Origin: Alphaproteobacteria bacterium
GTDB taxonomy: Bacteria; Pseudomonadota; Alphaproteobacteria; Rickettsiales; 21-14-0-20-44-7
NCBI GenBank assembly: GCA_043757405.1
Contig: JAYVPI010000016.1
Coordinates: forward strand, 15,623 to 79,622
Length of the DNA: 64,000 nt
Reading direction: 5' to 3'
In this document: positions 2,026-41,617 of the stretch, piece by piece
Layout of the letters: the number at the start of each line of letters is the position of its first letter
Numbering within the stretch: the stretch's first letter is position 1
Notes under the pieces: model-generated
What the model was told of the DNA's origin: nothing
The model's database searches: none
What the model saw: only the letters and a program-made list of their open reading frames with translations
Position numbers and translations under genes: made by a program

Positions 2026-2090
2026 CGTTGATCGTTTATCGTTTATCGTTGTTTGAATTAATAGTAGCGATAAACGATGAGCGATCAACG
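2026..2090. repeat. Family B hairpin built from CGTTTAT heptamers
   Basis: Left arm CGTTGATCGTTTATCGTTTATCG, right arm CGATAAACGATGAGCGATCAACG. It abuts the purU ATG and contains the glycosyltransferase ATG. Confidence 0.8.
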
Positions 2091-3138
2091 ATTAACGGTT
2101 TTGCAAGTGCTTCCATCCCTGGAACAGGGCGGGGTTGAGCGTGGGGTGGTGGAAATTGATAATGCGTTGGTGGCTCAAGGGTGGAATTCGATTGTTGTTT
2201 CGCGCGGCGGGAGGATGGTGAAGGAGCTTAAAGGCAAGCATTTGAAGCTGCCGGTGGATAGTAAGAATCCGCTGAAAATTTTGTTGAATGCACATTTTTT
2301 GAAGTTTGTTATTAAGGAAAATAAAGTTGATATCGTCCATGCGCGGAGCCGGGCACCGGCTTGGAGCGCTTGGCTGGCGGTTAAAGGGACGCGGGCGAAG
2401 TTTGTGACGACGTTTCATGGGACATATGGAATTAGTAATGAGCTGAAGCGGAAATATAATTCCGTGATGGTTAAAGGTGAGCGGGTAATTGCGGTTTCGG
2501 AGTTTATCAAAAAGCATATCCTCGATAATTATAATGTAGAGCAGGAGCGGATTATCACCATCCCGCGCGGAGCGGATTTGAATGAATTCCGGCCTGATGT
2601 TGAACCGGCTGGGTTGGCTTTGCCGAAGGGGAAAGTGGTAATGTTGCCGGGAAGGATTACGCGGTGGAAGGGGCAGCATGTTTTTGTTGAGGCGATGCGC
2701 GGGCTCGATGCGGTGGGGGTGATTGTGGGAGATGTGGAGAACCAGAATTATATCCGCGAATTGGAGGCGACTTTGCCGGATAATATTATCATTTTGCCAG
2801 GCACGCCGGATCTGGCGCCGGTGCTCAGTAATGCGGATGTGGTGGTTTCGGCATCGATTAAGCCGGAGGCGTTCGGGCGCGTGGCGGTGGAGGCGCAAGC
2901 CTTGGGCAAACCGGTGGTGGCTACCAATTTCGGTGGGGCGCTGGAGACGGTGATTGATGGGAAAACCGGGTTGCATATTCCGCCGAATGATGCACTGGCG
3001 ATGCGGGCGGCGATTATGAAATTGTTGGATTCGGATGGTTCTATGCGCGGGGCTTGTATTGCGAATGCAGCGAATTTTACCACGGAAAAAATGTGTGCGC
3101 GGACTTTGGATTTGTATAAGTCGATAGTAAAACAATAA
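2077..3138 (+). CDS. Glycosyltransferase, GT-B fold (family 1/GT4-like)
   Basis: C-terminal E-x7-E region EAFGRVAVEAQALGKPVVATNFGGALE. 353 aa. Confidence 0.8.
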   Translation: MSDQRLTVLQVLPSLEQGGVERGVVEIDNALVAQGWNSIVVSRGGRMVKELKGKHLKLPVDSKNPLKILLNAHFLKFVIKENKVDIVHARSRAPAWSAWLAVKGTRAKFVTTFHGTYGISNELKRKYNSVMVKGERVIAVSEFIKKHILDNYNVEQERIITIPRGADLNEFRPDVEPAGLALPKGKVVMLPGRITRWKGQHVFVEAMRGLDAVGVIVGDVENQNYIRELEATLPDNIIILPGTPDLAPVLSNADVVVSASIKPEAFGRVAVEAQALGKPVVATNFGGALETVIDGKTGLHIPPNDALAMRAAIMKLLDSDGSMRGACIANAANFTTEKMCARTLDLYKSIVKQ

Positions 3139-3204
3139 CGTCATTCTGCGGCTTGACCGCAGAATCTTTTCGAAGAGTTCCTGCGGTCAAGCCGCAGGAT
3201 GACG
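3139..3204. repeat. Family A nested-palindrome element
   Basis: CGTCATTCTGCGGCTTGACCGCAGAATC ... CCTGCGGTCAAGCCGCAGGATGACG. Starts 1 nt after a stop codon. Confidence 0.85.
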
Positions 3205-3208
3205 TATT

Positions 3209-4057
3209 TTAGGTGACGCGGTTGATTTCTATTTTGTTGAGGAAAAACTCCACTGCTTGATATAAGGCATGGCGGGTAATATTGGCTTGTGCTTCCTCAG
3301 TAGCGTCGGCGATGTGCGGAGTGATTAGTCCTTGTTGGTTGCTGTCTATGTTTATGAAAGGTTGCACCAGGTCTTCATCGCCGTCGATGGCAAAGGCGGA
3401 GATTTTGCCGGACTTTAGGGCATTTGCGAAGGCTTTTACGTCAACTAATTGCGGGCGGGCGGTGTTGATTAGGATTGTGCCGGGTTTCATTTGGGCGAAT
3501 TCTTTTTCGCTGATTAGGTTTTCGGTTTCTGCGGTTAATGGAATGTGGAGGGAGATTATGTCGCAACTGGCGGATAGTAATTCGCTTAAGGAAATTCCGG
3601 AGCTGCGGGAGTGAATGATTACTTCCATGCCAAAGCTTTCCGCGATTTTGGCGACTCGCTTGCCGATGTTGCCATTGCCGATGATTCCGAGTTTTTTGCC
3701 TTTTAATTCGCGGTTGGGCTTATAGAGTTTTAGCATTGATAATATAGTAAATTCGGCAGTGGCGTCGCTGTTTAGGCCTGGGGTGTTTTCAACAATTATG
3801 CCGCGTTTCTTGCATTCGTCCAGAGCGATGGAGTTGACACCGGCGCCGCCGCGGATGATTAGTTTCAAGTGGATGGCATGGGCGATTGCTGTGGCGCTGA
3901 CGGGTTTGGGGCGGACGATTAACCCATCATATGGTTTGATTTCATGTTCGAGTTGTTGTGGGGTGATTTCTGGTTTGTAGACGAACTTCACGCCTTTATT
4001 GGAAAATTCGGCGAGGACTTTTTCGTCCAAGGATTCAGCGATTAGTACTTGTTTCAT
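3209..4057 (-). CDS. D-isomer-specific 2-hydroxyacid dehydrogenase family protein (short, phosphoglycerate-dehydrogenase-like)
   Basis: NAD-binding GIIGNGNIGKRVA. Catalytic-region motifs INTARPQLVD and ITPHIADAT. Confidence 0.75.
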   Translation of the reverse strand: MKQVLIAESLDEKVLAEFSNKGVKFVYKPEITPQQLEHEIKPYDGLIVRPKPVSATAIAHAIHLKLIIRGGAGVNSIALDECKKRGIIVENTPGLNSDATAEFTILSMLKLYKPNRELKGKKLGIIGNGNIGKRVAKIAESFGMEVIIHSRSSGISLSELLSASCDIISLHIPLTAETENLISEKEFAQMKPGTILINTARPQLVDVKAFANALKSGKISAFAIDGDEDLVQPFINIDSNQQGLITPHIADATEEAQANITRHALYQAVEFFLNKIEINRVT

Positions 4058-4533
4058 TCTCTGGTTTTGCCTTTGTCAGGGCGCTCATCCTTCAAATCCA
4101 GCGCACGGCGGGCGGATTGGGAAAGGACGATTTGATAGCGGATGACGACTTCGCGGATTTCCTTCAAACGTTTTTGGCCGCGCACCATTTTTTGCATAGC
4201 GGGGTTTTTGATGTGCTCAATTTCATGGGCGATGATGGCGGTGGCCTGGCCGATATCAATATAATGCTGGTCGCAGAGGACTTTTACCAAGCGTACAGGG
4301 TCTTCGGTTTTGACATGGATTAAGCCATTGGCGTCGACATTTGCGTAAAAGTCATTTTTCTGGACGATATCGAGAATTTTTTTTGTGGAGGTGGTTTTGC
4401 GCAGGCGGATTTCCTGGCGGGCGGTTTCGTGGCTTTTTAAGGATTCGATATGTTCGGAAAATTCGGCGTCGATAAGGTAGAGGCGGTTTTCCTCATCTTC
4501 TTCAACAAATACGCCGTCAAAAATCTGCTTCAT
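4054..4533 (-). CDS. Hypothetical protein (159 aa)
   Basis: Long ORF with a 4-nt stop/start overlap with the downstream dehydrogenase gene. No family recognised. Confidence 0.55.
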   Translation of the reverse strand: MKQIFDGVFVEEDEENRLYLIDAEFSEHIESLKSHETARQEIRLRKTTSTKKILDIVQKNDFYANVDANGLIHVKTEDPVRLVKVLCDQHYIDIGQATAIIAHEIEHIKNPAMQKMVRGQKRLKEIREVVIRYQIVLSQSARRALDLKDERPDKGKTRE

Positions 4534-4563
4534 AATTCATCATAAATAGTTTTTGGATGAAGT

Positions 4564-5265
4564 TCAAGCGGCAGTGAGCTTGGGTTTGAATAATTTATCC
4601 CAAATGGAAACCGGGATTTTTATTGGCCGCCCGCCAATGCCGAAAATGCGTTTTTCGGCTTCGATAATTATTATACCGCTGAAATGCCGCAGGAAAACGC
4701 TGCCGATAAATTCGCCAATTTGGTTCAGGGTTTTGTAGCGGGTGGGGATGAAGAAAAGGGCGCAGCGGGTGCGTTTGATGAAGAATTTATTGAAATAGAG
4801 ATATTCGTTTAGTTTGTGGCGGGAATAAGCTTTTGTCTTGTGGAAGGGGGAATTGCTGCGTAGCCACACGCCGCTTTCGTTGGGCGCGATGAGGAGGAGT
4901 TTGCCGTCGGGTTTCAGGACGCGCCAGATTTCTTCGATCAGGTTTTCGGGGATTTTTACATGTTCAATGCCGTGGATGATTATGGCGCGGTCAAAGAATT
5001 CGTTGTTCAATGGGAGTTTGGTCGGGTCGGTGATGACGGCAGCGCAGGCATCCTCGATTTTTACGGGCCCCAGGTTTTGCGGCATCAGGGCGATGATGTT
5101 ATTGCCGTAGGAGAATAATGGGAGATATGGCTGCGCGAAGCCAAAGCCGAGGATTTTTTCGCTGGCCATTTCGGGCCAGAAAGAGGTGATTTTGGCGCGG
5201 AGTTTGCGGCAGGTGAATTTGCCTAGAGGGGTTTCGTAGAAGGATTTGAGTTCACTGGCGTTCAT
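4564..5265 (-). CDS. Class I SAM-dependent methyltransferase
   Basis: Methyltransferase type-11-like post-I/III region AIIIHGIEH...VLKPDGKLLLIAPN. Confidence 0.7.
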   Translation of the reverse strand: MNASELKSFYETPLGKFTCRKLRAKITSFWPEMASEKILGFGFAQPYLPLFSYGNNIIALMPQNLGPVKIEDACAAVITDPTKLPLNNEFFDRAIIIHGIEHVKIPENLIEEIWRVLKPDGKLLLIAPNESGVWLRSNSPFHKTKAYSRHKLNEYLYFNKFFIKRTRCALFFIPTRYKTLNQIGEFIGSVFLRHFSGIIIIEAEKRIFGIGGRPIKIPVSIWDKLFKPKLTAA

Positions 5266-5278
5266 CTCACAAACTTAC

Positions 5279-5394
5279 TCCCCCCTTGAGGGGGAGTCAA
5301 AACACAAAGTGTTTTTGTGGGGGGCAAAGAGGCGGGTAGCTCATCCCCCCACCAAATTGCGTTGCAATTTGGCTCCCCCTCAAAAGGGGGGGAG
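5279..5394. repeat. Composite of five consecutive small hairpins
   Basis: CTCCCCCCttgaGGGGGAG, CAAAACACaaaGTGTTTTTG, GTGGGGGG..CCCCCCAC, CCAAATTGCgtGCAATTTGG, CTCCCCCtcaaaaGGGGGGGAG. The outermost two are inverted copies of each other. Confidence 0.75.
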
Positions 5395-6288
5395 CTAAGA
5401 GGTGTATTTCTGAATCAATTTCTTGACGCCATCGCCTAAGTCATCGCGCTCTAATGCAAAGGCGATTGTGGCTTCAATAAAACCTAGTTTGTTGCCGCAG
5501 TCGAAGCGTTTGCCATCGAATTTCATGGCGTAATAATCGGAGTCCTTGGCCATTTTTGCCATTGCGTCGGTGAGCTGGATTTCGCCGCCGGCGCCCTTTT
5601 CGGCGTTTTCGAGATATTTGAAAATGGAGCTGTCGAGGATATAGCGGCCGATCATCGCCATATTTGATGGTGTGTCGGCAGGCTTTGGTTTTTCAACCAT
5701 GCCAGTTAATTTGACGCGGTTGTTTTTCATCTCGCCGTTGGGGATGATCATGCCGTAGCTGCTGGAATCTTTTTTATCTATTTCCGCAACGGCGACAATG
5801 CTGGAACCGGTTTCTTCATAGGCTTCGCGCATTTGTTTGAGGCAGGGTTTTTGGCTCATCATTAATTCGTCGGGCAGTAAAACCGCGAAGGCTTCATCGC
5901 CGATGAAGTTGCGGGCGCACCATACGGCATGTCCGAGGCCCAGTGGTTCTTGCTGGCGGATGAAGGCGATGGAGCCGGGTTTTGGCATCCATTCAATGGT
6001 TTGGTGGAGCTCTTCCTGTTTTGCTTTGTCAGTGAGGATTTTTTGCAATTCGTAATTATGGTCGAAGTGGTTGTTGATGATGTTTTTGTTGCGGCCGGTG
6101 ATGAAGATGAATTCCTCGAAGCCGGAATTGATGGCTTCCTCAAAAACATATTGGATGATGGGTTTATCGACCAAGGTCAGCATTTCCTTGGGCATGGCTT
6201 TGGTGGCGGGCAAGAAACGCGTGCCGAGGCCGCCGACTGGGAAAACTGCTTTAGTGAGTTTTTTGGTTGCGTGGTTGCGTTGTTGCAT
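5395..6288 (-). CDS. galU: UTP--glucose-1-phosphate uridylyltransferase
   Basis: AVFPVGGLGTRFLPATKAMPKEML signature. Start trimmed to MQQRNHATKK at 6288; the first codons lie inside a hairpin repeat. Confidence 0.9.
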   Translation of the reverse strand: MQQRNHATKKLTKAVFPVGGLGTRFLPATKAMPKEMLTLVDKPIIQYVFEEAINSGFEEFIFITGRNKNIINNHFDHNYELQKILTDKAKQEELHQTIEWMPKPGSIAFIRQQEPLGLGHAVWCARNFIGDEAFAVLLPDELMMSQKPCLKQMREAYEETGSSIVAVAEIDKKDSSSYGMIIPNGEMKNNRVKLTGMVEKPKPADTPSNMAMIGRYILDSSIFKYLENAEKGAGGEIQLTDAMAKMAKDSDYYAMKFDGKRFDCGNKLGFIEATIAFALERDDLGDGVKKLIQKYTS

Positions 6289-6343
6289 GGTTACATGGTT
6301 ATAATGAAAACCATGCAACCATGCAACCAGCAACCACGCAACC
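6265..6343. repeat. Family B hairpin built from GGTTGCRT octamers, loop ATAATGAAA
   Basis: The arms 6265-6300 and 6310-6343 are near-complementary. The galU ATG lies in the left arm and the SDR-gene ATG in the loop. Confidence 0.85.
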
Positions 6344-7164
6344 TTTTCTGCTTCGGCCAGGGCTATTGTGCTGATAATTTTGCACAGGTGCTTCAGTGGG
6401 ACAGCGTCTATGGCACGCATCGCGGGGATTTGCCGCTGGGGGATGTGGCGCGGATGAAGTTGCGGGAGGCGACGCATATATTATTGTCGATTCCGCCGGA
6501 TGAGGATGGGGATCTGGTTTTGCGGGCTGGGTATGAAATGAGCCCGCAATGGGTTGGATATTTGAGTACTACCGGGGTTTATGGAAATACGGATGGGGAA
6601 TGGGTGGATGAAAATAGTATGACCAACCCGAATAATGCGCGTTCGGAATGGCGTGTGAAGGCGGAGTGGCAGTGGCGGGAGAGCGGGTTGCCGGTGCATA
6701 TCTTCCGGCTGTCGGGGATTTATGGGTCCCAATCCCCCAACTGGGGTGCAAAAAAAAATCGGAGTGTGATTGATGAATTGCGTGCGGGGACGGCGCGGCG
6801 GATTGGGAAGGAGGGGCAGTTTTTTTCGCGGATTCATGTGGAGGATATTGCGCAGGTTTTGGCAGCTTCAGTTGTGAAGCCGATGCCGGGGGAGATATTT
6901 AATTGCGCGGATGATTATCCGTGCTCGGCGGCGGAAGTTGTAGAATATGCGGCGCGGCTGGTTGGGTTAGAGCTGCCGCCGATTGTACCTTATGAAGAGG
7001 CCGAGTTATCGCCGATGGCACGCAGTTTTTATGCCAGTTCGCGGCGGGTGAGGAATGATAAAATCAAAGAAGTTCTTGAAGTCAGTTTGAAGTATCCAAC
7101 TTATAAAGAAGGGCTGCAGGCAATAGCTATGATGCCTTCTTCTGTTGTTGATCACACACAGTAG
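6304..7164 (+). CDS. SDR / NAD-dependent epimerase-dehydratase family protein
   Basis: Only the C-terminal 286 aa of the 411-aa ORF is non-antisense. It has a Rossmann-like N-terminus LFCFGQGYCA and STTGVYG. The start ATG at 6304 sits in a hairpin loop. Confidence 0.6.
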   Translation: MKTMQPCNQQPRNLFCFGQGYCADNFAQVLQWDSVYGTHRGDLPLGDVARMKLREATHILLSIPPDEDGDLVLRAGYEMSPQWVGYLSTTGVYGNTDGEWVDENSMTNPNNARSEWRVKAEWQWRESGLPVHIFRLSGIYGSQSPNWGAKKNRSVIDELRAGTARRIGKEGQFFSRIHVEDIAQVLAASVVKPMPGEIFNCADDYPCSAAEVVEYAARLVGLELPPIVPYEEAELSPMARSFYASSRRVRNDKIKEVLEVSLKYPTYKEGLQAIAMMPSSVVDHTQ

Positions 7165-7588: not shown

Positions 7589-7658
7589 AATATTTGCTCC
7601 TTTTTTACGGTTTATAAAGAATATAAGTTTATAAAGAAATAAGCATCAAAAAACTATT

Positions 7659-8567: not shown

Positions 8568-10096
<1,529 letters not shown>

Positions 10097-15937: not shown

Positions 15938-16585
15938 TAAACTATTGATATAATCCGGTAGTTTTTCCCCGGCTTTGCCGTGGATTCTTTTGTCGAAATA
16001 GGGGCTGGATGTTGGCTCTAAGTTGATTTCCACTGTTTCCGCGCCTGCGCTTTTTGCTTCCATTGCGAAACCGGCGGCGGGGTAGACATTGCCGGAGGTG
16101 CCGATCGAAATGAATAAGTCGCATTCGCGCAAGGCATCGTAAATTCGTTCCATCTCAAACGGCATTTCGCCGAACCAAACTATGTGTGGGCGGAACTCGA
16201 TGCCGGATAAATCTTCATGGCAATCAGATACTTTGCCGCTGGTTGTGCAGCGTTTCTTCAGGATTTCGCCGTGCATGTGGATGAGGTTTTTACTGCCAGC
16301 GCGTTCGTGGAGATCGTCGATATTTTGGGTGACGAGGAGGAAGTTATGCGGCCATTTTGCCTCCAGTTCCGCCAGGGCAAAATGAGCGGCGTTTGGTTTT
16401 ACGGTCTTTATCTGTTCGCGGCGGGTGTTATAGAACCTTTGCACCAATGCATGGTCACGCTCAAAAGCTTCCGGCGTAGCCACATCTTCAACACGGTGAT
16501 CTTCCCACAAACCATCGGCGGCGCGAAAGGTTTTAATGCCGCTCTCGGCGGAAATTCCGGCGCCGGTGAGAATGACGATGTTCAT
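15929..16585 (-). CDS. cobB: NAD-dependent protein deacylase (sirtuin)
   Basis: [22 protein letters not shown] and HG motifs. Start trimmed to MNIVILTG; the upstream extension is heptamer-repeat-encoded. Confidence 0.85.
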
Positions 16586-16588: not shown

Positions 16589-16670
16589 TTTCGGTTTTGG
16601 GTTGTGGGTTTTGGGTGTTGGGGAAGGAAGAAAAACCCTAAAACCCAAAACCTACAACCCAACACCGAAA
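16589..16670. repeat. Family B hairpin built from GGTTTTG-type heptamers
   Basis: The ~35-nt arms TTTCGGTTTTGGGTTGTGGGTTTTGGGTGTTGGGG and CCCTAAAACCCAAAACCTACAACCCAACACCGAAA fill the phoB-stop to cobB-start gap. Confidence 0.85.
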
Positions 16671-16671: not shown

Positions 16672-17376
16672 TTACTTCGTATCATCCAACGCATAACCAG
16701 CTGATCTAACTGTGCGGATCAGATCTTCCATTCCCGGCACTACTTCCAGCGCTTTGCGGAGGCGGCGGATGTGGACGTCTACGGTGCGGAGTTCGACGTA
16801 AATATCATTGCCCCAAATGCCATCAAGCAATTGCTCGCGGGTGAAGACGCGTTTTGGGTGTTCCATGAAGTGGCGCAGGAGTTTGAATTCCGTGGGGCCG
16901 AGATGGACTTCGTTGGTGTTGCGGGTAACTTTGTGGGTGGAAAGATCCATGATAATATCGGCGAATTTCAAACTCTCTTTTGAGAATGCCGGGCGGATGC
17001 GGCGCAGGACTGCGCGTATACGGGCGATTAATTCCGCTGGGGAGAAAGGTTTGATGATGTAGTCATCAGCCCCGTAATCCAGGCCCATTAATTTGTCAGC
17101 TTCTTCGCCGCGGGCGGTGACCATGATGATTGGGATGTTGCGGGTTTTATCGGAATGGCGGAGGCGGCGGCAGATTTCGATGCCGGAAACATTAGGAAGC
17201 ATCCAATCGAGAAGTATGATGTCCGGGCGTTCTGACTCAACCATGTGGACAGCTTCGGCGCCATCATCAATATGCACGGCATTAAAGCCTTCGGCCTTCA
17301 AATTATATTTCAGCATCGCGGCGATGGCTTCGTCGTCCTCGACTACCAAAACTTTTGCGTTCATGTCTACTGCCAT
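16672..17376 (-). CDS. phoB: Phosphate regulon response regulator (OmpR family)
   Basis: Receiver domain (VLVVEDDEAI ... ILLDWMLP) plus winged helix (VDVHIRRLRKAL). It lies next to pstB. GGAG Shine-Dalgarno before the ATG. Confidence 0.85.
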   Translation of the reverse strand: MAVDMNAKVLVVEDDEAIAAMLKYNLKAEGFNAVHIDDGAEAVHMVESERPDIILLDWMLPNVSGIEICRRLRHSDKTRNIPIIMVTARGEEADKLMGLDYGADDYIIKPFSPAELIARIRAVLRRIRPAFSKESLKFADIIMDLSTHKVTRNTNEVHLGPTEFKLLRHFMEHPKRVFTREQLLDGIWGNDIYVELRTVDVHIRRLRKALEVVPGMEDLIRTVRSAGYALDDTK

Positions 17377-17387
17377 TCTATTCTCCA

Positions 17388-17460
17388 GTCATTAGTCATT
17401 AGTTATTAGTCATTAGATATATTATTTTTCCTAATGACTTGCAACTAATGACTAATGACT
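17388..17460. repeat. Family B hairpin built from AGTCATT heptamers
   Basis: The 30-nt arms are complementary except for 4 nt. It fills the pstB-stop to phoB-start gap. Confidence 0.85.
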
Positions 17461-17462: not shown

Positions 17463-18236
17463 TCAACCATAGCGTCCGGTTATATAATCCTGTGTCTGTT
17501 TAAATTGCGGGTTGGTAAAGATAATATCCGTATCATTATATTCCACAATCTTTCCGAGGTGGAAAAAGGCGGTTTTTTGGGAAACTCTTGCGGCCTGTTG
17601 CATGGAATGGGTGACGATGACGATGGTGAAGTTCTTTTTCAGCTCGTCGATTAGGGTTTCAATTTTGGCGGTGGCGATGGGGTCGAGGGCGCTACATGGT
17701 TCATCCATAAGGATAATTTCGGGCTGGACGGCGATGGTGCGGGCGATGCACAGGCGCTGCTGCTGGCCGCCGGAGAGGCTGGTTCCGGATTCGGCGAGGC
17801 GGTCTTTGACCTCTTCCCACAAGCCGGCGCGGATGAGGCTTTTTTCAACCAGCTCATTCAAATCGGTTTTGCCTTTGACCAAACCGTGGATGCGCGGGCC
17901 ATAGGCGACGTTGTCAAAGATGGATTTGGGGAACGGATTCGGTTTTTGGAAAACCATGCCGATTTTGGCGCGAAGTTCGACGACATCGACATCAGGATTG
18001 TAGATATTGCGGCCGTCGAAAGTGACATCGCCGATAATCTTGCAGCCTTCGATCGTATCATTCATGCGGTTGATGCAGCGGAGGAATGTAGATTTGCCGC
18101 AGCCGGACGGGCCGATCAGCGCGGTGACGGTGTGTTCGGGGATATCGAGATTAACATCATACAACGCCTGTTTTTCCCCGTAGAAGAGGTTGAGGTTGCG
18201 GATTTGTATCTTATTTTTATTACCAGCGGCGTTCAT
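17463..18236 (-). CDS. pstB: Phosphate ABC transporter ATP-binding protein
   Basis: [18 protein letters not shown], and the PstB-typical C-terminus YITGRYG. Confidence 0.95.
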
Positions 18237-22148: not shown

Positions 22149-22943
22149 TTAAACGGATAATAGACTGATAAGATTTTCGTGTAAATGATAATTAGAGGCT
22201 ACAACGTCGCCTTCTTCATAGAATTTTTCGCCTCCGGATACATCCGAAATTTTGCCGCCGGCTTCTTTTAAAATGATGATTCCGGCTGCCATATCCCACT
22301 TTTTCAAGGATAAATCCACCAACGCATCGAACTTGCCGCTGGCGAGATAGGCGAGGTCTAGCGCGGCGGAGTTGACGCAGCGGATAGTGCCGATTTTGGG
22401 GGTGAGTTTGTTGATGGCCTGGAGGATGTTTATTGGGGCTTTGGTCGGGCGGCGGTAGGAGCTGGGGGAGCCGCAGGCGATGAATGATTCGTTCAAACTG
22501 CGGCGTGAGGAAACGCGGACGCGTTTATTGTTGAGGAAAGTGCCGCCGTTTTTTTCGGCATAGAAAATTTCGTTATGGACTGGTGACATGATGACGCCGG
22601 CGACGGGTACGCCGTTTTTTTCCAGGCCGATGGAAATGCACCAATATGGGAAGCCGTGGAGGAAGTTGGTGGTGCCATCGAGCGGGTCGATGACGAAGCG
22701 GTAATCGGGGTGGGAGCGTTTATGTTCGCCGGATTCTTCGGCGAGGATGCTCCAATCGGGGCGGGCGGTAGTTAGTTCCTTGATGATGGTTTCTTCGGCT
22801 TTTTTATCGGCATTGCTGACGAAATCACCCGGGCCTTTGGCGGAGACTTGGAGGTTTTCGACTTCGCCGAAATCACGCAAGAGGCGGCCGCTGGCTTTTT
22901 TGGCGGCGTTGATCATTACGGTGAGGTGGGGGGAAGTGGTCAT
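22149..22943 (-). CDS. suhB: Inositol monophosphatase family protein
   Basis: DPLDGTTNFLHG and WDMAAG motifs. Confidence 0.9.
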   Translation of the reverse strand: MTTSPHLTVMINAAKKASGRLLRDFGEVENLQVSAKGPGDFVSNADKKAEETIIKELTTARPDWSILAEESGEHKRSHPDYRFVIDPLDGTTNFLHGFPYWCISIGLEKNGVPVAGVIMSPVHNEIFYAEKNGGTFLNNKRVRVSSRRSLNESFIACGSPSSYRRPTKAPINILQAINKLTPKIGTIRCVNSAALDLAYLASGKFDALVDLSLKKWDMAAGIIILKEAGGKISDVSGGEKFYEEGDVVASNYHLHENLISLLSV

Positions 22944-22961
22944 AGGGCATAGGGCATAGGG
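22941..22961. repeat. (CATAGGG)x3 heptamer array that includes the suhB start codon
   Basis: Read directly. The minus strand reads CCCTATG CCCTATG CCCTATG-ACC. Confidence 0.9.
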
Positions 22962-23000
22962 TATGAGCGGCAGAAAGTAAACGATTTTTTAGGCAAAAGC

Positions 23001-23048
23001 GTAAACACAGAAATACAGAAACACAGAAATCTGTATTTCTGTGTTTAC
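23001..23048. repeat. Family B hairpin built from ACACAGAA octamers
   Basis: Perfect 18-bp arms GTAAACACAGAAATACAG / CTGTATTTCTGTGTTTAC with a 12-nt loop. Confidence 0.85.
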
Positions 23049-23127
23049 GGCTGTAAAAAATACGGCGCGTAATTTGACTTATGCAGGTTTGAGGCGCATA
23101 ATTTAATTATAGGGTGGGATCGTATAA

Positions 23128-27232: not shown

Positions 27233-28498
27233 TTAAGCGGCATATTTGCTGAACACCAGCGTCGCATTCGTCCCGCCGAAGCCGAAGGAGTTGGAGAGGA
27301 CGCGCTCGATTTTGCGTTCTTTGGCTTTTAGTGGGACTAGATCCATGTCGCAGGAATCGGAGGGGTTCTCGAGGTTCAAAGTCGGCGGGCAGATTTGGTC
27401 GCGCATGGCGAGGATGGAGAAGATGGCTTCCACGGCTCCGGCTGCGCCGAGGAGGTGGCCGATGCTGGATTTGGTGGAGGACATTGAGACTTTTCCTGCG
27501 GCATTTCCGAATAAGCGTTTTACGGCGCCGTGTTCGATTTCATCGCCTTTTGGCGTGCTGGTGCCGTGGGCGTTTATGTAGTCGATATCGGATGGAGTGA
27601 GTTGCGCGTCTTTTAATGCGGCTTGCATGGCGCGGTAGCCGCCGTCGCCGTTTTCGGTAGGGCTGGTGATGTGGAATGCGTCGCCGGACATTCCATAGCC
27701 GACTAATTCACCATAAATTTTGGCGCCGCGTTTTTTGGCGTGTTCGAGTTCTTCCATCACAAGGACGCCTGCGCCTTCGCCCATGACAAAGCCATCCCGG
27801 CCTTTATCCCACGGGCGGGAGGCTTTTTCGGGGGTTTCGTTATATGAAGTTGAGAGCGCGCGGGCGGCGGCGAAACCGGCGATGCCGAGGCGGCAAATTG
27901 CGCTTTCGGCGCCGCCGGCGATCATGACATCGGCGTCACCATATTTGATGATACGTGCCGCGTCGCCAATTGCGTGGGTGCCGGTGGCGCAGGCGGTGAC
28001 AACGGCATGGTTAGGGCCTTTGAAGCCGTATTTGATTGAGATATTTCCGGAGGCGAGGTTAATCAAGCATGATGGGATGAAGAAAGGGCTGAGGCGGCGC
28101 GGGCCTTTTTCTTTGAGCAATAACGCAGCTTCTTCGATGCCAGGAAGGCCGCCGATGCCGGAGCCGATGATGATGCCAGTGCGTTCTTTGTCTTCATCAG
28201 TTTGCGGGAGCCAGCCGGAATCATTGATGGCTTCGTCCGCCGCGCCATAAGCGAAGTGGATGAAACGGTCGACTTTGCGCTGGTCTTTGGGGTCGAGGGA
28301 AGTGTCGGGATTGAAGAGGCCTTCTGTAGTTCCGTAAGGAACCTGGCCGGCGACTTTGCACGGCAGATCGCTGGTGTCGATGCGGTCTATTGCCTTGATG
28401 CCAGATTGCCCTTTGAGAAGTTTTTCCCAAGTGGTTTTAACGCCAGCGGCAAGGGGAGTGACTGCTCCGATTCCGGTAACTACTACACGTCTTGTCAT
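27233..28498 (-). CDS. fabF: 3-oxoacyl-ACP synthase II
   Basis: Active-site AVVTACATG, HGTSTPKGD, NSFGFGGTNA. Confidence 0.95.
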   Translation of the reverse strand: MTRRVVVTGIGAVTPLAAGVKTTWEKLLKGQSGIKAIDRIDTSDLPCKVAGQVPYGTTEGLFNPDTSLDPKDQRKVDRFIHFAYGAADEAINDSGWLPQTDEDKERTGIIIGSGIGGLPGIEEAALLLKEKGPRRLSPFFIPSCLINLASGNISIKYGFKGPNHAVVTACATGTHAIGDAARIIKYGDADVMIAGGAESAICRLGIAGFAAARALSTSYNETPEKASRPWDKGRDGFVMGEGAGVLVMEELEHAKKRGAKIYGELVGYGMSGDAFHITSPTENGDGGYRAMQAALKDAQLTPSDIDYINAHGTSTPKGDEIEHGAVKRLFGNAAGKVSMSSTKSSIGHLLGAAGAVEAIFSILAMRDQICPPTLNLENPSDSCDMDLVPLKAKERKIERVLSNSFGFGGTNATLVFSKYAA

Positions 28499-28502: not shown

Positions 28503-28594
28503 GAGAACTTAGAATGTTAGAACTTGGAACGTTAGAACTTTTAATTAAGAAATACAACATTTCTAAGTTCTAAACCTCTATGTTCTAAAGTTCT
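28503..28594. repeat. Family B imperfect hairpin built from GTTAGAAC-type units
   Basis: GAGAACTTAGAATGTTAGAACTTGGAACGTTAGAAC ... TTCTAAGTTCTAAACCTCTATGTTCTAAAGTTCT. It fills the acpP-stop to fabF-start gap. Confidence 0.7.
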
Positions 28595-28826
28595 ACTTGT
28601 GTGAATCAACGTAATTGATGGCGTCTTGAACGGTGGTGATTTTTTCCGCAGCGTCATCAGGGATTTCGATTGAGAATGCTTCTTCAAATGCCATAACGAG
28701 TTCAACTTGATCCAGGGAATCAGCGCCCAGATCATCAACGAAGCTAGATGTTTCAGTAATTTTGCCTTCGTCAACGCCGAGATGCTCAGCTACGATTTTT
28801 TTGATTTTTTCAGAAGTATCAGACAT
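28593..28826 (-). CDS. acpP: Acyl carrier protein
   Basis: [18 protein letters not shown] phosphopantetheine site. 77 aa. Confidence 0.95.
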
Positions 28827-28894: not shown

Positions 28895-28917
28895 GGGTTG
28901 TAGTTGCATGGTTGCAT
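28895..28917. repeat. Solo arm of the GGTTGCAT octamer repeat
   Basis: GGGTTGTAGTTGCATGGTTGCAT upstream of acpP. No complementary arm seen. Confidence 0.5.
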
Positions 28918-28947: not shown

Positions 28948-29550
28948 TCAATATTCTCTTGCAATAGTCAGGGGAGTTCTCCTACCATGAGTTGTCCGTG
29001 ATAAAAAAGTTGGCTCCCGATTTAGTTTGCCGCTTGCTATGAGATAACCTGCCTGCTGATATGCGGCATCTTGCGGAACTATCGCTCTATCAGGCGCAAA
29101 TTCCTTTCCTGCCGAATACATATCAAATCCCCTTTGTATACGCTTGGCGGCATTATCAGCACCATATTTTGTTTCTGCATTCACCATTCTTTGGATATCT
29201 GCACGCATAATTGTATCGCCCCAAATCATAGCAACGCATTCAACTTGTCCAGATTGGGCAGCACCGTAGGCTGCATAGTAAGCTTCACTAGATTCATAAT
29301 AACCGCCTTTTCCGAAGGTGTTTACAGCATGCATTACATTTCCGTTTCTTATCATAGCCTTTAGGCAATTTACACGGCCATCATTCGCGGCTTTTCTAAA
29401 TATTTGTACCAACATGTAAGATTCTTGGTCTTTGGCGGGGGTAACTCTCAATATATGTAAAAGTTGTGTAGCATCGTCTCGCTCTAATGCTAAACGAGTA
29501 TTAGCTTGAAATTCTGTTGGTTCACCGCAGCCACATCCCTGATCTGTCAT
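28948..29550 (-). CDS. Hypothetical protein (200 aa), AT-rich orphan between acpP and fabG
   Basis: Long ORF only. No family recognised. Confidence 0.45.
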   Translation of the reverse strand: MTDQGCGCGEPTEFQANTRLALERDDATQLLHILRVTPAKDQESYMLVQIFRKAANDGRVNCLKAMIRNGNVMHAVNTFGKGGYYESSEAYYAAYGAAQSGQVECVAMIWGDTIMRADIQRMVNAETKYGADNAAKRIQRGFDMYSAGKEFAPDRAIVPQDAAYQQAGYLIASGKLNREPTFLSRTTHGRRTPLTIAREY

Positions 29551-30318: not shown

Positions 30319-30319
30319 A

Positions 30320-30520: not shown

Positions 30521-31460
30521 TGTTTAAATCGCCGATGGTTTGGATGCAGTTGCCGTTCAGGCTTTCCTCAATGCGTTTGGTGAGGCCGGTGAGGACTTTG
30601 CCATAACCGATTTCGATTAGATTTTCGATGTTTTGGGTTTTCAAATATTGGACCGATTCGCGCCAGCGGACGCGGCCGGTTACTTGTTGAACAAGGAGTT
30701 TTTTGATTTCGGTTGGGTCGGTGGTTATGCTGGCGGTGACGTTGGCGACTAATGGGACTTTTGGTTTGTTGACTGTGACTGCGGCGAGGGCTTCCTGCAT
30801 TTTTTCGGCGGCGGGTTGCATCAGGCGGGAGTGGAAAGGGGCGGAAACTTGTAGCTCGATGGCGCGTTTGGCGCCTTTGGCTTTGGCGAGTTCCATAGCT
30901 TTTAATACGGTATCTTTGAGCCCGCTGATTACTACCTGGCCTTTGTCGTTATCATTGGCGGCTTCGCATCCGGCTTCTTTGGCGAGTGCGTCAACAGTTG
31001 CGAAATCTAAACCGAGGATTGCGGCCATTGAGCCGACTCCGACGGGGACGGCGGCTTGCATGGCTTGGCCGCGGATTTTCAGGAGTTTGGCGGTGTCGGT
31101 GAGGGATAATGCTCCGGCGGCGCAGAGGGCGGAATATTCACCTAAACTGTGACCTGCGACGAAAGATGCGACTTCCGTTATATCTTTTTTTAGCGAGCGG
31201 AAAATGGCGATGGAGGTGGCCATGATCGCGGCCTGGGTGTTTTCGGTGAGGTTTAATTCTTCCTGCGGGCCTTCAAAAATGATTTTGGAAAGCGGTTTGC
31301 CGATTGCGTCATCGACTTCCTGGAAAACGGCGCGGGCTTCGGGATAATTCTCCGCGAAATCCTTGCCCATGCCGACTTTTTGGGAGCCCTGGCCGGGGAA
31401 AATGAGGGCGGTTTTGGGTTTTGGGTTTTGGGTTTTGGGGTTTTGTGCGGGATTTGTCAT
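30513..31460 (-). CDS. fabD: Malonyl-CoA:ACP transacylase
   Basis: FPGQGSQ and GHSLGEY. The N-terminus carries the heptamer-repeat-encoded NPKTQNPKPKT. Confidence 0.95.
   Translation of the reverse strand: MTNPAQNPKTQNPKPKTALIFPGQGSQKVGMGKDFAENYPEARAVFQEVDDAIGKPLSKIIFEGPQEELNLTENTQAAIMATSIAIFRSLKKDITEVASFVAGHSLGEYSALCAAGALSLTDTAKLLKIRGQAMQAAVPVGVGSMAAILGLDFATVDALAKEAGCEAANDNDKGQVVISGLKDTVLKAMELAKAKGAKRAIELQVSAPFHSRLMQPAAEKMQEALAAVTVNKPKVPLVANVTASITTDPTEIKKLLVQQVTGRVRWRESVQYLKTQNIENLIEIGYGKVLTGLTKRIEESLNGNCIQTIGDLNNV
31410..31446. repeat. (TTTTGGG)n heptamer array inside the fabD 5' coding region
   Basis: The plus strand carries G-tracts GG, GGG, GGG, GGG, GGGG separated by TTTT. It encodes NPKTQNPKPKT on the minus strand. 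Confidence 0.9.
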
Positions 31461-37074: not shown

Positions 37075-37089
37075 AATCTCACTCCAATT

Positions 37090-37962: not shown

Positions 37963-38132
37963 TTTCTGTATTTTCCTTCTGAAATATTTATACCATGGAA
38001 GTGGTAAAATATCAATTTATATGTAAAAATAACACTAAATTCTACTGTACTTTGAACCTGTTGATTTATAAGTAGAATATGAAGTTAATTATTCAATCCA
38101 TATAAAAATCTCATACTGAAATCCTAAAAATT

Positions 38133-38163
38133 GTCACCCCGTGCTCGTCACGGGGTCTGGCGG
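38133..38163. repeat. Family A half-element (left-arm type); possible terminator of the ankyrin gene
   Basis: GTCACCCCGTGCTCGTCACGGGGTCTGGCGG has an 8-bp stem, and on the minus strand it is followed by a T-rich tract. Confidence 0.5.
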
Positions 38164-38188
38164 TTTCGCATACCTAATTCGTGATCGG

Positions 38189-38743
38189 CTATCGTCGCAA
38201 GCCAAGTGAGGCATTTGCTTGCACTGCAGAACATCGCTTTACCGGCTTTGAGTGTGGTTGCAATTTCTCTGCGGAGCGTAAGATATGCGCCTGTTCGCTT
38301 CGATCCATCTCCTCAGCGTATTCACGCGGAGTGTAGCCAGCCTCGTTCTGTGCGCTAAGTTGTGCGCCACTAAGCATCAAGAGTCTACACAGTTCCAAAG
38401 AACCCCCGTATATCGCGGCCCAGTGCAACGGTGTGTCACCTGATGTCGTCACTGCGTTTACGTTTGCGTTGCACGAAAGCAAGGTTGCGGCTGCGGCTTT
38501 TTCGCCCAGTAGAATTGCGCTATGCAACGCTGTCTCACCGTTTGTCCCGCTGGATGTGGCGTTTACGTCGGCACCAAGTTCCACGAGTAATTTAATGGCT
38601 TCTAATTTGCCGCTAGCCACTGCGTGAAATAATGCGGTAGCGTCTCGGATACCCCGCACATCCGCGTGCCAGTTGGGCTCACTCAATATATGTCGTATCT
38701 GGATCAAGTCGCCCTTGGAGGCGGCTTCGTGAAGACGTGTCAT
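38189..38743 (-). CDS. Ankyrin-repeat protein
   Basis: At least four ANK units (TALFHAV..GADVNA, ETALHSAI..NANVNA, DTPLHWAA..GAQLSA, YTPREYA). Confidence 0.85.
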   Translation of the reverse strand: MTRLHEAASKGDLIQIRHILSEPNWHADVRGIRDATALFHAVASGKLEAIKLLVELGADVNATSSGTNGETALHSAILLGEKAAAATLLSCNANVNAVTTSGDTPLHWAAIYGGSLELCRLLMLSGAQLSAQNEAGYTPREYAEEMDRSEQAHILRSAEKLQPHSKPVKRCSAVQANASLGLRR

Positions 38744-38884
38744 TACTCTCTCCTGTTTGTCAGTTTGATTATGCTACCATAATGATGTGAACTTTTTGTT
38801 ACAAAACTAGCACAATAGTGAATTTCGACTCCTCGATAGTGAATCGGGCGGGCTCTCAGATATGCGATGGAGTATGTGAAACCG

Positions 38885-38913
38885 CTGGATCCCGTCATGC
38901 GACGGGATGACAA
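38885..38913. repeat. Family A half-element (right-arm type)
   Basis: CTGGATCCCGTCATGCGACGGGATGACAA parallels CCTGGATCCCCGCTACGCGAGGATGACAA at 8215-8242. Confidence 0.55.
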
Positions 38914-38919
38914 GGGGGG

Positions 38920-39516
38920 TTACCCTTTTATCAACTTCAAGAACTCGGAGCGGGTTTTTTCGTTTTTCTTGAAGGCTCCTAACATGGTGGAAGTTTGCAT
39001 GGTGACGTCGCGTTTGTGGACACCGCGAGTGGTCATGCATTGGTGGCTGGCTTCGACGATAACGCCGACGCCTTTTGGTTGCAGGACTTTGTTGATGGCC
39101 TGCGCGATTTCGGAGGTCATTTTTTCTTGGATTTGGAGGCGTTTGGCATAAACATCCACCACGCGAGCTAATTTTGAAATTCCGACAACTCGGTTATTAG
39201 GGATATAGCCGATATGGACGTGGCCGATAACTGGGAGCATATGATGCTCGCATTGTGACTCGAAAGGGATGGCTTTGAGCGTTATCATTTCGTCATAGCC
39301 GGCGGTTTCCTCAAAGGTGCGGGCGAGGATTTCTTCCGGGTCCTGGCCGTAGCCGCTGTAGAATTCCTCGAAGGATTTGACTACGCGTTCGGGAGTTTGC
39401 AGCAAGCCTTCGCGGTTTGGATCATCTCCCGCCCATTGGATAAGCGTGCGCACGGCGGCTTCGGCGGCTTCGCGGGTGATTTTTGATTTCTTGATGATGG
39501 GGGTTATTTTTTCCAT
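38920..39516 (-). CDS. folE: GTP cyclohydrolase I
   Basis: [20 protein letters not shown] and HQCMTTRG motifs. Confidence 0.95.
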
Positions 39517-39525
39517 AAGAGCTGA

Positions 39526-39584
39526 CAGGAATCAGGTATCAGGAATCAGAATTATCTGATACCTGATTTCTGACAACTGATACC
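39526..39584. repeat. Family B imperfect hairpin built from AATCAGG/TATCAGG heptamers
   Basis: CAGGAATCAGGTATCAGGAATCAGA ... TCTGATACCTGATTTCTGA. It fills the dps-stop to folE-start gap. Confidence 0.7.
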
Positions 39585-40033
39585 TATTTTGCCTGTGAGC
39601 GGAGCATCCATGCGTTTTTCTGGTGAACTTGAATGCGGCGGACGCCGAGATCTTCGGAGCCTTTATCCTCGTTGTCACCGGCGATGTCGATTAAGTCCTG
39701 CGCTGATTTTATCATTTCTTCCTGCGCGGCGATAAGTCCTTCAACAGTTGCCTTATGCTTGATTTTGGATTCCTTGTTGAAAACTTCCAGCGAAGTTTCC
39801 ACTTTCTCGCCCAAAGCGCGGATGCGTTCGGCAATTTCGTCGATGGCGGTGAACTGTTCGTTGTAGAACATTTCGGAAAGTTTGTGCAGGCCGTAGAAAT
39901 TTTCGCCTTCGACATTCCAGTGGAAGTTTTGGGTGAGAACTAATGTCGCGTATGAATCGGAGAGGAATTGGTGCAATTGGCGGGCGACGACGGGGACGTT
40001 TTTGATGACTTTGGCGGATTGGGATTGTGGCAT
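39584..40033 (-). CDS. dps: Dps-family DNA-protection/ferritin-like protein
   Basis: NFHWNVEGENFYGLH ferroxidase region. GGAGAG Shine-Dalgarno before the ATG at 40033. Confidence 0.85.
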   Translation of the reverse strand: MPQSQSAKVIKNVPVVARQLHQFLSDSYATLVLTQNFHWNVEGENFYGLHKLSEMFYNEQFTAIDEIAERIRALGEKVETSLEVFNKESKIKHKATVEGLIAAQEEMIKSAQDLIDIAGDNEDKGSEDLGVRRIQVHQKNAWMLRSQAK

Positions 40034-40114
40034 TTTTCTCTCCATATGAATTTCGGGCAATATAACAGGGTGTGTTTATAAATTCAATGCAAGCTTATAT
40101 ATATTGGTTTGTGC

Positions 40115-40142
40115 AAATGTGGAAATGTGGATTTCCACATTT
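40115..40142. repeat. Palindrome built from AAATGTGG octamers upstream of dps
   Basis: AAATGTGGAAATGTGGATTTCCACATTT, whose core GAAATGTGGA-T-TCCACATTTC is a perfect inverted repeat. Confidence 0.8.
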
Positions 40143-40193
40143 CATGAAATACTCATCGTTGAATTATATGAAGTTTTAGCGCAGCAGGGGGGA

Positions 40194-41534
40194 TTATTCA
40201 GGCTTTTTCTTCTCGAAAGGGTTGGCTTTTTTTGGCATGTTTATGCGCACCGGCACTCCCGGCAGGTTAAAGTTGCGGCGGAGGTCGTTGATTAGGTATT
40301 TTAGCCAGGAATCAGGCATGTTGTCGGGCTGGCTGCAGGAGAGCATGAAGGTCGGCGGGCGGGTTTTGGTTTGGGTGAGGTAACGAATCTTGATGCGGCG
40401 GCCTTTGGAGATTGGCGGCGGATGATGGGAGAGGACGTATTTGATCCATTCGTTGAGTTTGTTGGTGGGGATGCGCGTGTTCCAGATGTCATAGGTGGTG
40501 AGGGCCTGGTCGAGTAATGGGTTTACGTTCTTGTCGTTAAGTGCGGAGATTTTGACGATTGGGACGCCGGTGATGTCGCCTAATTGTTTGCGGACTAGAT
40601 AATCCAGTTCTTCGGCGAAGGCTTTTTTGTCCTTCACCAAATCCCATTTATTGACGACGATAATTATGGCGCGGCCTTCGTCGATAACATGTCCGGCGAG
40701 GCGCAAGTCTTGGCGCTCTAAAGCTTCAGTTGCGTCCATTACCAGCATTACGATTTGGGCGTATTTAATAGCGTTGAGGGAATCTTTGACGGAGACGGTT
40801 TCCAGTTTTTCGGTGATATGGGATTTTTTGCGCATTCCGGCGGTGTCGACTAAGCGAAGTGCGTGGCCATTATATTCCCAGTCGATGTGAATTGAATCGC
40901 GGGTTGTCCCTGCAACTTCGTTGGTAATGACGCGGTCTTGGCCAATCATTTTATTGATGATGGTGGATTTTCCGGCATTGGGGCGGCCGATGATGGCAAT
41001 TTGGATGGGGGGAAGGGCTGATTGCCGATTGCCGATTGCCGATTGTTGGTTGGTGCTGAATTCATCAATTTTCATGTAGAGGTCGACCATGCCCAGGTTG
41101 TGCTCGGCGGAAATGGCGATTGGTTCGCCGAAGCCGAGTTTGAAAAGGTCGGCGACGGTTGCGGATTTTTTTTCGCATTTATTGGCGGTGAGGATTGTGG
41201 GTTTGTTTTGCTTGCGCAGCCAGCGGATGAAATATTGGTCATTGGGGGTGATGCCGGAATCGGCGTCGACTACGAATAATAATATATCGGCCTGTTCGGC
41301 GGCGGCTTCGGTGGATTTTAGCATTGAGGCCTGGAGTTTGCGGCCTTCGGCTTTTTCCAATCCGGCGGTGTCGATGATGCGGTATTGTTCTTCCATAATG
41401 GTCGTGACTTCATCGCGCCAGTCACGGGTGGTTCCGGCGGCGTCATCGGTGATGGCTTTCTTTTTGCCGATTAGCCGGTTGAACAGCGTCGACTTGCCGA
41501 CATTCGGACGGCCGATGATGGCGATGGTTTTCAT
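40194..41534 (-). CDS. der: Ribosome-biogenesis GTPase Der (EngA)
   Basis: Two G domains (GRPNVGKST, GRPNAGKST) plus a KH-like C-terminus. Start trimmed to MKTIAIIG. Confidence 0.95.
   Translation of the reverse strand: MKTIAIIGRPNVGKSTLFNRLIGKKKAITDDAAGTTRDWRDEVTTIMEEQYRIIDTAGLEKAEGRKLQASMLKSTEAAAEQADILLFVVDADSGITPNDQYFIRWLRKQNKPTILTANKCEKKSATVADLFKLGFGEPIAISAEHNLGMVDLYMKIDEFSTNQQSAIGNRQSALPPIQIAIIGRPNAGKSTIINKMIGQDRVITNEVAGTTRDSIHIDWEYNGHALRLVDTAGMRKKSHITEKLETVSVKDSLNAIKYAQIVMLVMDATEALERQDLRLAGHVIDEGRAIIIVVNKWDLVKDKKAFAEELDYLVRKQLGDITGVPIVKISALNDKNVNPLLDQALTTYDIWNTRIPTNKLNEWIKYVLSHHPPPISKGRRIKIRYLTQTKTRPPTFMLSCSQPDNMPDSWLKYLINDLRRNFNLPGVPVRINMPKKANPFEKKKPE
41018..41045 (-). repeat. (CAATCGG)x~4 heptamer array, in-frame inside der
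   Basis: The plus strand reads CTGATTG CCGATTG CCGATTG CCGATTG. It encodes QQSAIGNRQSA in the linker between the two G domains. Confidence 0.95.
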
Positions 41535-41537
41535 GAA

Positions 41538-41617
41538 AGTTGCATAGTTGCGTAGTTGCGTGGTTGCATGGTTATAATGAAAACTACGCAACTACGCAAC
41601 TATGCAACCACTCAACC
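41538..41617. repeat. Family B hairpin built from AGTTGCRT octamers, loop ATAATGAAA (same family as 6265-6343)
   Basis: Arms 41538-41573 and 41583-41617. It starts 4 nt from the der ATG. Confidence 0.85.

Follow-up and report, generated by a model that had tools for sequence, protein, structure and literature searches.

Intergenic hairpins with tandem 7- and 8-mer arms in an alphaproteobacterial genome and their probable kinship with PF05635 cassettes

Heptamer repeats are over-represented in many bacteria and have been known in cyanobacteria for decades, with their origin and role unexplained. The first cyanobacterial heptamer report dates from 1990, when Mazel et al. reportedly described tandem heptanucleotides in Calothrix PCC 7601; short tandemly repeated repetitive (STRR) heptamers are found in filamentous cyanobacteria. 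Intervening sequences (IVSs) of the 23S rRNA that bear an open reading frame (ORF), as in Coxiella and Leptospira, gave the Pfam family PF05635 its name, 23S_rRNA_IVP; this very large family has solved structures and no known function. The present study concerns a 64,000-nucleotide stretch of DNA from an uncultured alphaproteobacterium (the window, C16:15623-79622, on contig JAYVPI010000016.1) with nine hairpins, here numbered S1 to S9 by position, each arm of which consists of a 7- or 8-mer in tandem array. The genome joins heptamer repeats with PF05635, with a separate unit family for each gene copy, a fixed polarity and numerous copies that lack the gene. We hold it somewhat probable that the hairpins represent gene-less forms of an IVS-like class of foldback elements, in which the arms are tandem 7- or 8-mer arrays in a fixed head-to-head polarity and a PF05635 gene occupies the loop of the full-length members.

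Among described systems, the GGGAATC heptamers of Xanthomonas campestris and X. axonopodis occur as inverted pairs, 70-75 of them in each genome, in a single "convergent" orientation (Rehm et al. 2015, PMC4692102), and the first tandem heptanucleotides were those of Calothrix PCC 7601 (cited in PMC4692102). TAACTGA repeats have been described in marine Beggiatoaceae, cyanobacteria and Bacteroidetes (MacGregor 2015, PMC4679880). The parent assembly of our window has 1.86 Mb in 35 contigs with 46.9% G+C, and its FabF is 63-74% identical to proteins from alphaproteobacterial metagenome-assembled genomes and isolates.

Unit families, arm polarity and PF05635 cassettes

Arrays were defined with Tandem Repeats Finder (TRF) as repeats of period 7 or 8 with at least 2.5 copies, and the chance level was taken from three third-order Markov genomes. 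The genome contains 319 arrays, with a mean of about 4.2 copies, compared with 20-29 in the simulated genomes; adjacent inverted pairs number 53, compared with 0 in the Markov genomes, and there are 0 direct pairs. Arrays next to their own complement, as the initial annotation had expected, are thus far above chance. In a gapped scan for array partners, 163 arrays have a reverse complement within 600 nt, compared with 0 in the null of reversed sequence and 8 partners in direct orientation. The resulting set comprises at least 94 array-armed hairpins, with loops of up to 60 nt in 78, of 60-250 nt in eight and of more than 250 nt in eight. For the short hairpins the medians are 27 nt for the arm, 14 nt for the loop (70% A+T) and 68.5 nt for the whole span, and these hairpins make up about 2.3% of the intergenic DNA. 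An ungapped hairpin scan undercounts such structures, to near zero in the relatives, because mixed 7- and 8-mers break the stems.

Some 14 families of units each occur at several unrelated sites. The largest are CGTTNAT (AAACGAT; 47 arrays), ATTGCCG (AATCGGC; 45), GGTTGCRT (26), AGTCATT (24), GAGTTTC (18) and GGGTTTT (15), followed by several smaller ones. The initial annotation had described the hairpins as unique to their sites, which is wrong for the genome as a whole because their units belong to these recurrent families. Its view that no single mobile sequence had spread holds good, given the many unit families and the unconserved loops: among the hairpins compared within families, no loop conservation was found beyond the pair S2 and S9. 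G-tracts are confined to the GGGTTTT family and are missing from CGTTNAT, AGTCATT, ATTGCCG and others. The identity between the two arms of a hairpin is 0.876 in register and 0.824 after a shift of one unit, and that between neighbouring units within an arm is 0.84; the arms are arrays of the same family, not mirror copies of each other. A separate class of gap-filling sequences consists of about 130 non-periodic palindromes (types GTCATCC...GGATGAC, GTCATTCCCGCG...CGGGAATGAC and CCCCTCCCTnAGGGAGGGG), for instance at C1:9463-9528 and C1:61212-61291, and in the relatives G004 and G002 such palindromes adjoin heptamer arrays and are apparently nested in hairpin loops.

Within each family the form of the unit in the 5' arm is constant, with counts of 19:0, 16:0, 12:0, 11:0, 8:0 and so on, to a total of 89 of the 89 hairpins that could be assigned. 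Of 94 hairpins, 79 have a G+T-rich 5' arm, the mean values of the two arms being 0.65 and 0.36. The same skew is seen in PF05635 cassettes with a clear upstream array, which is G+T-rich in 19 of 22, A+C-rich in one and at exactly 0.5 in two; among the 16 cassettes of this set that come from related genomes, 14 are G+T-rich. Selection for an A+C-rich leader was considered as the cause of the polarity and rejected, as the solitary arrays upstream of starts are unbiased (12 vs 16).

The product of the PF05635 gene is a four-helix bundle, a "23S rRNA intervening-sequence protein" that resembles Avd. The genome has 11 PF05635 matches, ten of them above the Pfam cut-off, one of the copies being a 50-aa remnant and another carrying a stop codon. 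All 11 lie between two genes and are flanked by inverted 7- or 8-mer arrays. The unit family differs from copy to copy, and the families are those of the empty hairpins, including the units of S6 (cassette at C34:22703-23142, TAGAACNT family) and S7 (cassette at C1:49330-49761, ATCAGGN family). In both unit family and polarity, a gene-bearing cassette matches GGTTGCRT, AGTCATT, GGGTTTT, TAGAACNT, ATCAGGN and ATTGCCG, and none in this assembly matches CGTTNAT, ACACAGAA or AAATGTGG; the GGTTGCRT cassette is at C22:11809-12204. A PF05635 gene occupies seven of the eight hairpins with loops longer than 250 nt. The loops of the nine window hairpins measure 8-38 nt and hold no gene, and because of this the window hairpins can be classed only as gene-less relatives of the cassettes. 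The 23S gene of this genome (C34:37033-39671) was scanned and is free of heptamer arrays, all hairpins being located either between protein-coding genes or within them; the possibility that this genome has an rRNA IVS was rejected accordingly.

The association extends beyond this genome. The gene was found in 12 of 31 related genomes surveyed, and nearly all of its copies in 11 relatives are bracketed by inverted arrays. The protein matches PDB entry 2GSC, which is XCC0516 of Xanthomonas campestris, with an E value of 9e-29. Orthologues of XCC0516 in X. campestris (L257:1121-1575), X. sacchari (L260:583-1035) and Dokdonella fugitiva (L262:585-1026) are placed between accB and accC, in all three species within inverted arrays of the GGGAATC type, and in all three the ATG of accC adjoins the last unit. 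We show here that XCC0516, a PF05635 gene placed between accB and accC, is enclosed by a GGGAATC pair; the main text of PMC4692102 mentions neither XCC0516 nor accB nor a four-helix-bundle gene. Our literature search returned nothing that joins "intervening sequence protein" with "heptamer", and PF05635 was mentioned only in one review of diversity-generating retroelements. The tie between heptamers and PF05635 holds for the published Xanthomonas repeat as well. The resemblance of the hairpins to gene-less copies of the PF05635 cassette offers a testable lead on the 7-base repeats of bacteria.

Insertion and turnover among related genomes

The gene order bamB-der-dps-folE is syntenic across the family. 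The genes bamB and der are 3 nt apart in G002 and some 20 nt apart in G003, and the dps/folE junction is free of hairpins and about 6-20 nt long in G001 and G002; because these junctions are short in the relatives, S9 and S7 are insertions. In G001, the bamB/der junction (L122:826-1321) has an additional small ORF, about 150 codons long and with a start resembling a signal peptide, at the place that S9 occupies here.

A broader comparison was made with 715 kb of G001, the sister species. Among 28 hairpin junctions whose two flanking genes are also adjacent in G001, most are tight or unstructured there, four or five have a hairpin of another family and two or three one of the same or a related 8-mer family. 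The families themselves differ in abundance between the two species: AAACGAT has 47 arrays here and 0 in G001, AATCGGC 45 and 0, and TAGAAC(N)T 6 and 21. The four top families of our genome have 0, 0, 0 and 1 arrays in G001, whose own top family is TAGAAC(N)T; the top family of the sister species is that of S6, TAGAACNT. These results indicate that the hairpins are lineage-specific insertions and that the families have expanded in separate bursts in the sister species.

The gene-bearing cassettes are older than the hairpins. Two orthologous PF05635 cassettes of G000 and G001 share 84-87% amino-acid identity and have retained their unit family. A cassette upstream of topA is common to three genera, with 60-67% identity, and its units have drifted together (TAGTCTG, TAGTCAG and CTAGCTN). 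Three relatives have a cassette upstream of cysD, where our genome retains only a solo array of the 3' form that abuts the ATG. At orthologous sites both the number of units and their variants differ, in agreement with the variation in unit number that had been anticipated for relatives.

The window hairpins and their gene context

By reading, all nine sites have the build that the initial annotation had described: a degenerate 7- or 8-mer in 3-5 copies, a loop rich in A+T and an array of the reverse complement. TRF recovers the arrays as well. The prediction of RNA folding that it had proposed gave a long stem at nine of nine sites, which as sense-strand RNA have minimum free energies of -13 to -61 kcal/mol and z values of -3.7 to -13.7 against shuffles. 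The names that it had given to the flanking genes (pstB/phoB, phoB/cobB, acpP/fabF and dps/folE) agree with NCBIfam, as do bamB/der; the genes of the window were checked in this way, and gene calls for the whole genome come from a crude ORF-based model. An Rfam scan of the window found two tRNAs only, and the hairpins match no Rfam family.

Two of the nine stand between divergent genes. S1 (2020-2096; CGTTNAT family) has arms at 2020-2048 and 2068-2096 and a loop at 2049-2067; the ATG of purU on the minus strand (2023-2025) falls within its first unit and that of a GT4 glycosyltransferase on the plus strand (ATG 2077) within its right arm. S2 (6265-6343), of the 8-mer family GGTTGCRT, has arms at 6265-6300 and 6309-6343 and separates galU on the minus strand, with its ATG (6286-6288) in the arm, from an unnamed ORF on the plus strand (6304-7164). 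In these two divergent pairs the start codons are 16-51 nt apart and inside the arms, the distance at purU/GT4 in the sister species being about 19 nt. This leaves no space for promoters between purU and GT4 or between galU and the ORF, and the promoters must therefore sit within the neighbouring coding regions. S2 and S9 share a loop, GGTTATAATGAAAAC (6297-6311 and 41570-41584), which contains a perfect TATAAT; no other two hairpins in the genome have a loop in common.

Five further hairpins nearly fill the space between a stop codon and the next start. S3 (16589-16670; GGGTTTT family; arms 16589-16623 and 16636-16670) occupies the gap that is delimited by the phoB stop (16672-16674) and the cobB ATG (16583-16585), both genes being on the minus strand. 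S4 (17387-17460; AGTCATT family) extends from the pstB stop (17463-17465) to the Shine-Dalgarno sequence GGAG and ATG (17374-17376) of phoB. S6 (28503-28595; TAGAACNT family) contains the acpP stop (28593-28595) in its right arm and runs towards the fabF ATG (28496-28498). S7 (39520-39579; ATCAGGN family) has the dps stop (39584-39586) on one side and the folE ATG (39514-39516) on the other, and S9 (41538-41617; GGTTGCRT family) lies between the bamB stop (41623-41625) and the der ATG (41532-41534). The hairpin accounts for 74-92 of the 86-94 nt between stop and start in S3, S4, S6 and S9, and for 60 of 67 nt in S7. The two others are small. S5 (23000-23049) is an atypical short hairpin of 20 bp, built of ACACAGAA units of a rare family with a third unit in the loop, 56 nt upstream of a suhB-like start; S8 (40110-40144) is a short hairpin in the der-dps spacer with two AAATGTGG units per arm, from a small and rare family. 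The earlier statement that the hairpins typically span the whole gap is accordingly right for S3, S4, S6, S7 and S9 and in line with the genome-wide medians given below, and does not hold for S5 and S8, which leave their gaps unfilled.

Across the genome, the distance from the upstream stop to the 5' arm has a median of 2 nt and is at most 10 nt in 47 of 66 cases, and that from the 3' arm to the next in-frame start has a median of 10 nt; because of the crude ORF model, start-codon distances on this scale are approximate. Junctions with hairpins are codirectional in 62 cases, divergent in 19 and convergent in 2, compared with 12.4 convergent ones expected (p=3e-4). Arms may themselves contribute codons, since an ATG is present in GCATGGTT, AATGACT and GATGAAC and several units have stops in all frames. 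The arms thus provide start codons, stop codons and extra residues in real proteins, and gene starts beside the elements are therefore easily miscalled.

Three single-arm arrays had also been predicted in the window; those at 22941-22961 and 31410-31445 were recovered by TRF and that at 28895-28917 by reading only. The first is (CATAGGG)x3, or CCCTATG x3 on the gene strand, and at this start of the suhB-like gene it yields three ATGs spaced 7 nt apart, of which the last is the start codon and the only one in frame. The solitary arm at 28895-28917 has about 2.7 GGTTGCRT units and is located between an orphan ORF (28948-29550) and acpP. The array at 31410-31445 (minus strand) is (GGTTTTG)x5, from the family of S3, in frame in the N-terminal coding part of fabD. 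Two other in-frame arrays, both of the ATTGCCG family, are (CAATCGG)x4.7 in purH (9629-9661, plus strand) and (GATTGCC)x3.7 in der (41020-41045, minus strand), the latter with the same coding-strand orientation as in purH.

In-frame heptamer arrays are hence present in the essential genes purH, der and fabD, and most coding arrays belong to the stop-free ATTGCCG family. This family has no stop in any of the six frames and is mostly intragenic, with 36 of its 45 arrays in coding sequence. Solitary arrays number 134, of which 80 are coding, and the A+C-rich form is on the sense strand in 60 cases and on the opposite one in 19. Two genes have paired arrays. In one of them (C11:40910-41824), which by inspection we presume to be TruB-like, an inverted in-frame pair of ATTGCCG arrays (C11:41204-41424) flanks 159 nt of coding sequence; in the other (C5:116328-117869), a pair of GGTGAAC arrays of opposite polarity flanks 312 nt. 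The der orthologues at G011:C84:6086-7471 and G014:C2:360579-362042 each match as two separate segments, and some 110-140 nt of additional in-frame sequence lie between the two GTPase domains; this may be another in-frame repeat insertion.

Origin of the elements and comparison with known systems

Recurrent families of fixed polarity, the distribution of families in the sister species and the bracketing of every PF05635 copy argue for a dispersed class of elements, related to PF05635 cassettes, over independent origins in place. New copies would arise by the spread of elements or cassettes; loss of the PF05635 gene would then reduce a copy to a short hairpin or a solo arm, and slippage and homogenisation would keep the arms repetitive. 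In a transcript, the stem of 25-35 bp is predicted to pair the bases after the upstream stop with those before the downstream start. Judging from this geometry and the stem length, a terminating ribosome would open the start region, so that translational coupling would be preserved, and the stem is a plausible substrate for RNase III, by analogy with the IVSs of rRNA. The elements would then be, for the most part, selfish DNA that the host tolerates and not host regulators. Questions for the bench are whether PF05635 proteins bind their own arrays and whether the stems bring about RNase III cutting or translational coupling.

Several observations weigh against this proposal. For the largest family, CGTTNAT, to which 19 hairpins belong, this assembly, which is 91% complete, contains no PF05635 cassette, and one is found only in the relative G021. 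A PF05635 remnant occurs in just one of the eight mid-sized loops (a 147-nt loop with a 50-aa remnant, E 7e-9), and because of this single case we can only infer the decay from cassette to hairpin; the reverse direction, in which a PF05635 gene enters pre-existing hairpins, is the alternative, and the direction is not proven. The copy number of PF05635 correlates with array density over 14 genomes (Spearman 0.68, p=0.007), a value without phylogenetic correction. No match was found in the genome to reverse transcriptase (PF00078), as a retroelement of Avd with reverse transcriptase would have, or to the Y1/RAYT transposase (RAYT, tyrosine transposase associated with repetitive extragenic palindromic, or REP, sequences; PF01797), nor was a transposase-like partner found, and no target duplication was seen at the junctions compared with G001. 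No loops are shared except those of S2 and S9, so that there is no direct sign of entire hairpins having moved by copy-and-paste. In 51 codirectional hairpins read on the sense strand, there are 42 G:U and 39 A:C mismatches beside 1230 Watson-Crick pairs; because this wobble bias is absent, there is no sign of selection on an RNA stem, and the complementarity looks like a property of the DNA that is not selected on one transcript.

An origin in place, by which replication slippage expands a motif and template switching copies the array in inverted form without any mobility, seems rather unlikely to us. Heptamer slippage has been proposed in the discussion of PMC4692102, and such an origin would suit the degenerate arms with barely mirrored variants, the unrelated loops, the varying number of units at orthologous sites and the 134 solitary arrays. 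Random inverted duplication of existing arrays should however yield both polarities, as should template switching on arrays in either orientation, so the fixed polarity of 89 out of 89 hairpins argues against it, as do identical 7- or 8-mers at dozens of unrelated sites, the same families on both sides of one specific gene family and a sister species that shares families at non-homologous sites and differs at homologous ones. The initial annotation had suggested a generative process of this type: slippage at the level of units does shape the arms, and the variants fit continuing homogenisation, whereas its independent origin at each site is contradicted by the recurrent families, the polarity and the PF05635 bracketing. 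It had also stated beforehand that identical units at non-homologous sites of relatives would speak against a purely generative process, and this is what the sister species has. A further scenario, which we consider very unlikely, is a telomere-like healing of breaks, in which a unit-specific, template-directed activity tied to PF05635 cassettes would add one and the same G+T-rich repeat to the two 3' ends of a DNA break before the ends are rejoined. It would explain the head-to-head polarity, the G+T-rich 5' arms on both strands, the independent arms of the same unit, and the unrelated A+T-rich loops and solo arms.

If the stems were instead regulatory RNAs selected by the host, serving translational coupling or the processing or stability of mRNA between cistrons, one would understand why the median distance of their base is 2 nt to the stop and 10 nt to the start, why they are very stable, why they are associated with start codons and depleted at convergent junctions, and why TAACTGA arrays in Beggiatoaceae likewise end 1 nt before start codons (PMC4679880). 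We nevertheless judge this unlikely: most of the junctions are empty or have another family in the sister species, against conserved regulation, the sense strand has no wobble asymmetry, 19 hairpins are at divergent junctions where no upstream ORF could be coupled, and some are in frame inside genes. Movement by a transposase, as for REP sequences, REPINs (REP doublets forming hairpins) or MITEs (miniature transposable elements with inverted repeats), is highly improbable. Dispersed intergenic palindromes in families and lineage-specific bursts are what such elements would show, but core and loop sequences are unconserved and the arms are tandem arrays in place of a fixed inverted repeat; REPIN/RAYT and retro-mobility were rejected in a genome with neither Y1 transposase nor reverse transcriptase, and a MITE assignment on account of loops that are unrelated except in S2 and S9, the lack of a duplication and the lack of a transposase partner. 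Intrinsic terminators or attenuators between genes are scarcely credible, even though the elements are stable intergenic stem-loops and S5 is followed by a T-rich stretch. No U-tract follows the stems, a consensus scan gives no more calls than shuffles and picks out no hairpin except S5, and many hairpins are within conserved operons (pst-phoB, acpP-fabF and ribosomal protein genes). The hairpins are not terminators because they avoid convergent junctions (2 of 83, with 12.4 expected), and this candidate was rejected.

The class of foldback elements that we favour can be compared with five described systems. REP sequences with their bacterial interspersed mosaic elements (BIMEs) and the REPIN-RAYT system (PMC3116915) are also short, dispersed intergenic palindromes in families, some with a linked "master" gene. 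They differ in combining a RAYT with a fixed palindrome, whereas here no RAYT is present, the conserved part is a 7- or 8-mer unit and the gene encodes a small four-helix bundle without known catalytic activity. The intervening sequences of 23S rRNA share with the PF05635 cassettes a long inverted-repeat stem around a PF05635 gene and an insertion that does not destroy the transcribed unit; they reside in rRNA, whereas the elements described here are between protein-coding genes.

Like our genome, cyanobacteria with STRR sequences have several heptamer families per genome in intergenic tandem arrays. Those arrays are mainly direct, with few inverted pairs in Nostoc (PMC4692102), and the phylum is a different one. 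The TAACTGA repeats (PMC4679880) resemble the present arrays in having 2-6 copies, in being nearly all intergenic and in that their largest class ends 1 nt before a start codon, and in relatives the repeat-free spacers are shorter, as here; they differ in having a single unit in direct arrays, with one inverted case among 170 sets, and no reported cassette gene.

The GGGAATC pairs of Xanthomonas (PMC4692102) consist of one G-rich unit that was studied for its capacity to form G-quadruplexes, in contrast to some 14 families here, most of which are unable to do so, and 16% of them are between convergent ORFs, an arrangement that is avoided in our genome, where the hairpins abut start codons. In other respects the two agree: both consist of tandem heptamers that are mostly intergenic and near a neighbouring ORF, and both vary in length and sequence between species at conserved sites (PMC4692102). 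The two features that mark the GGGAATC type, tandem arrays of at least three copies above chance and a fixed relative orientation, were both found in our genome.

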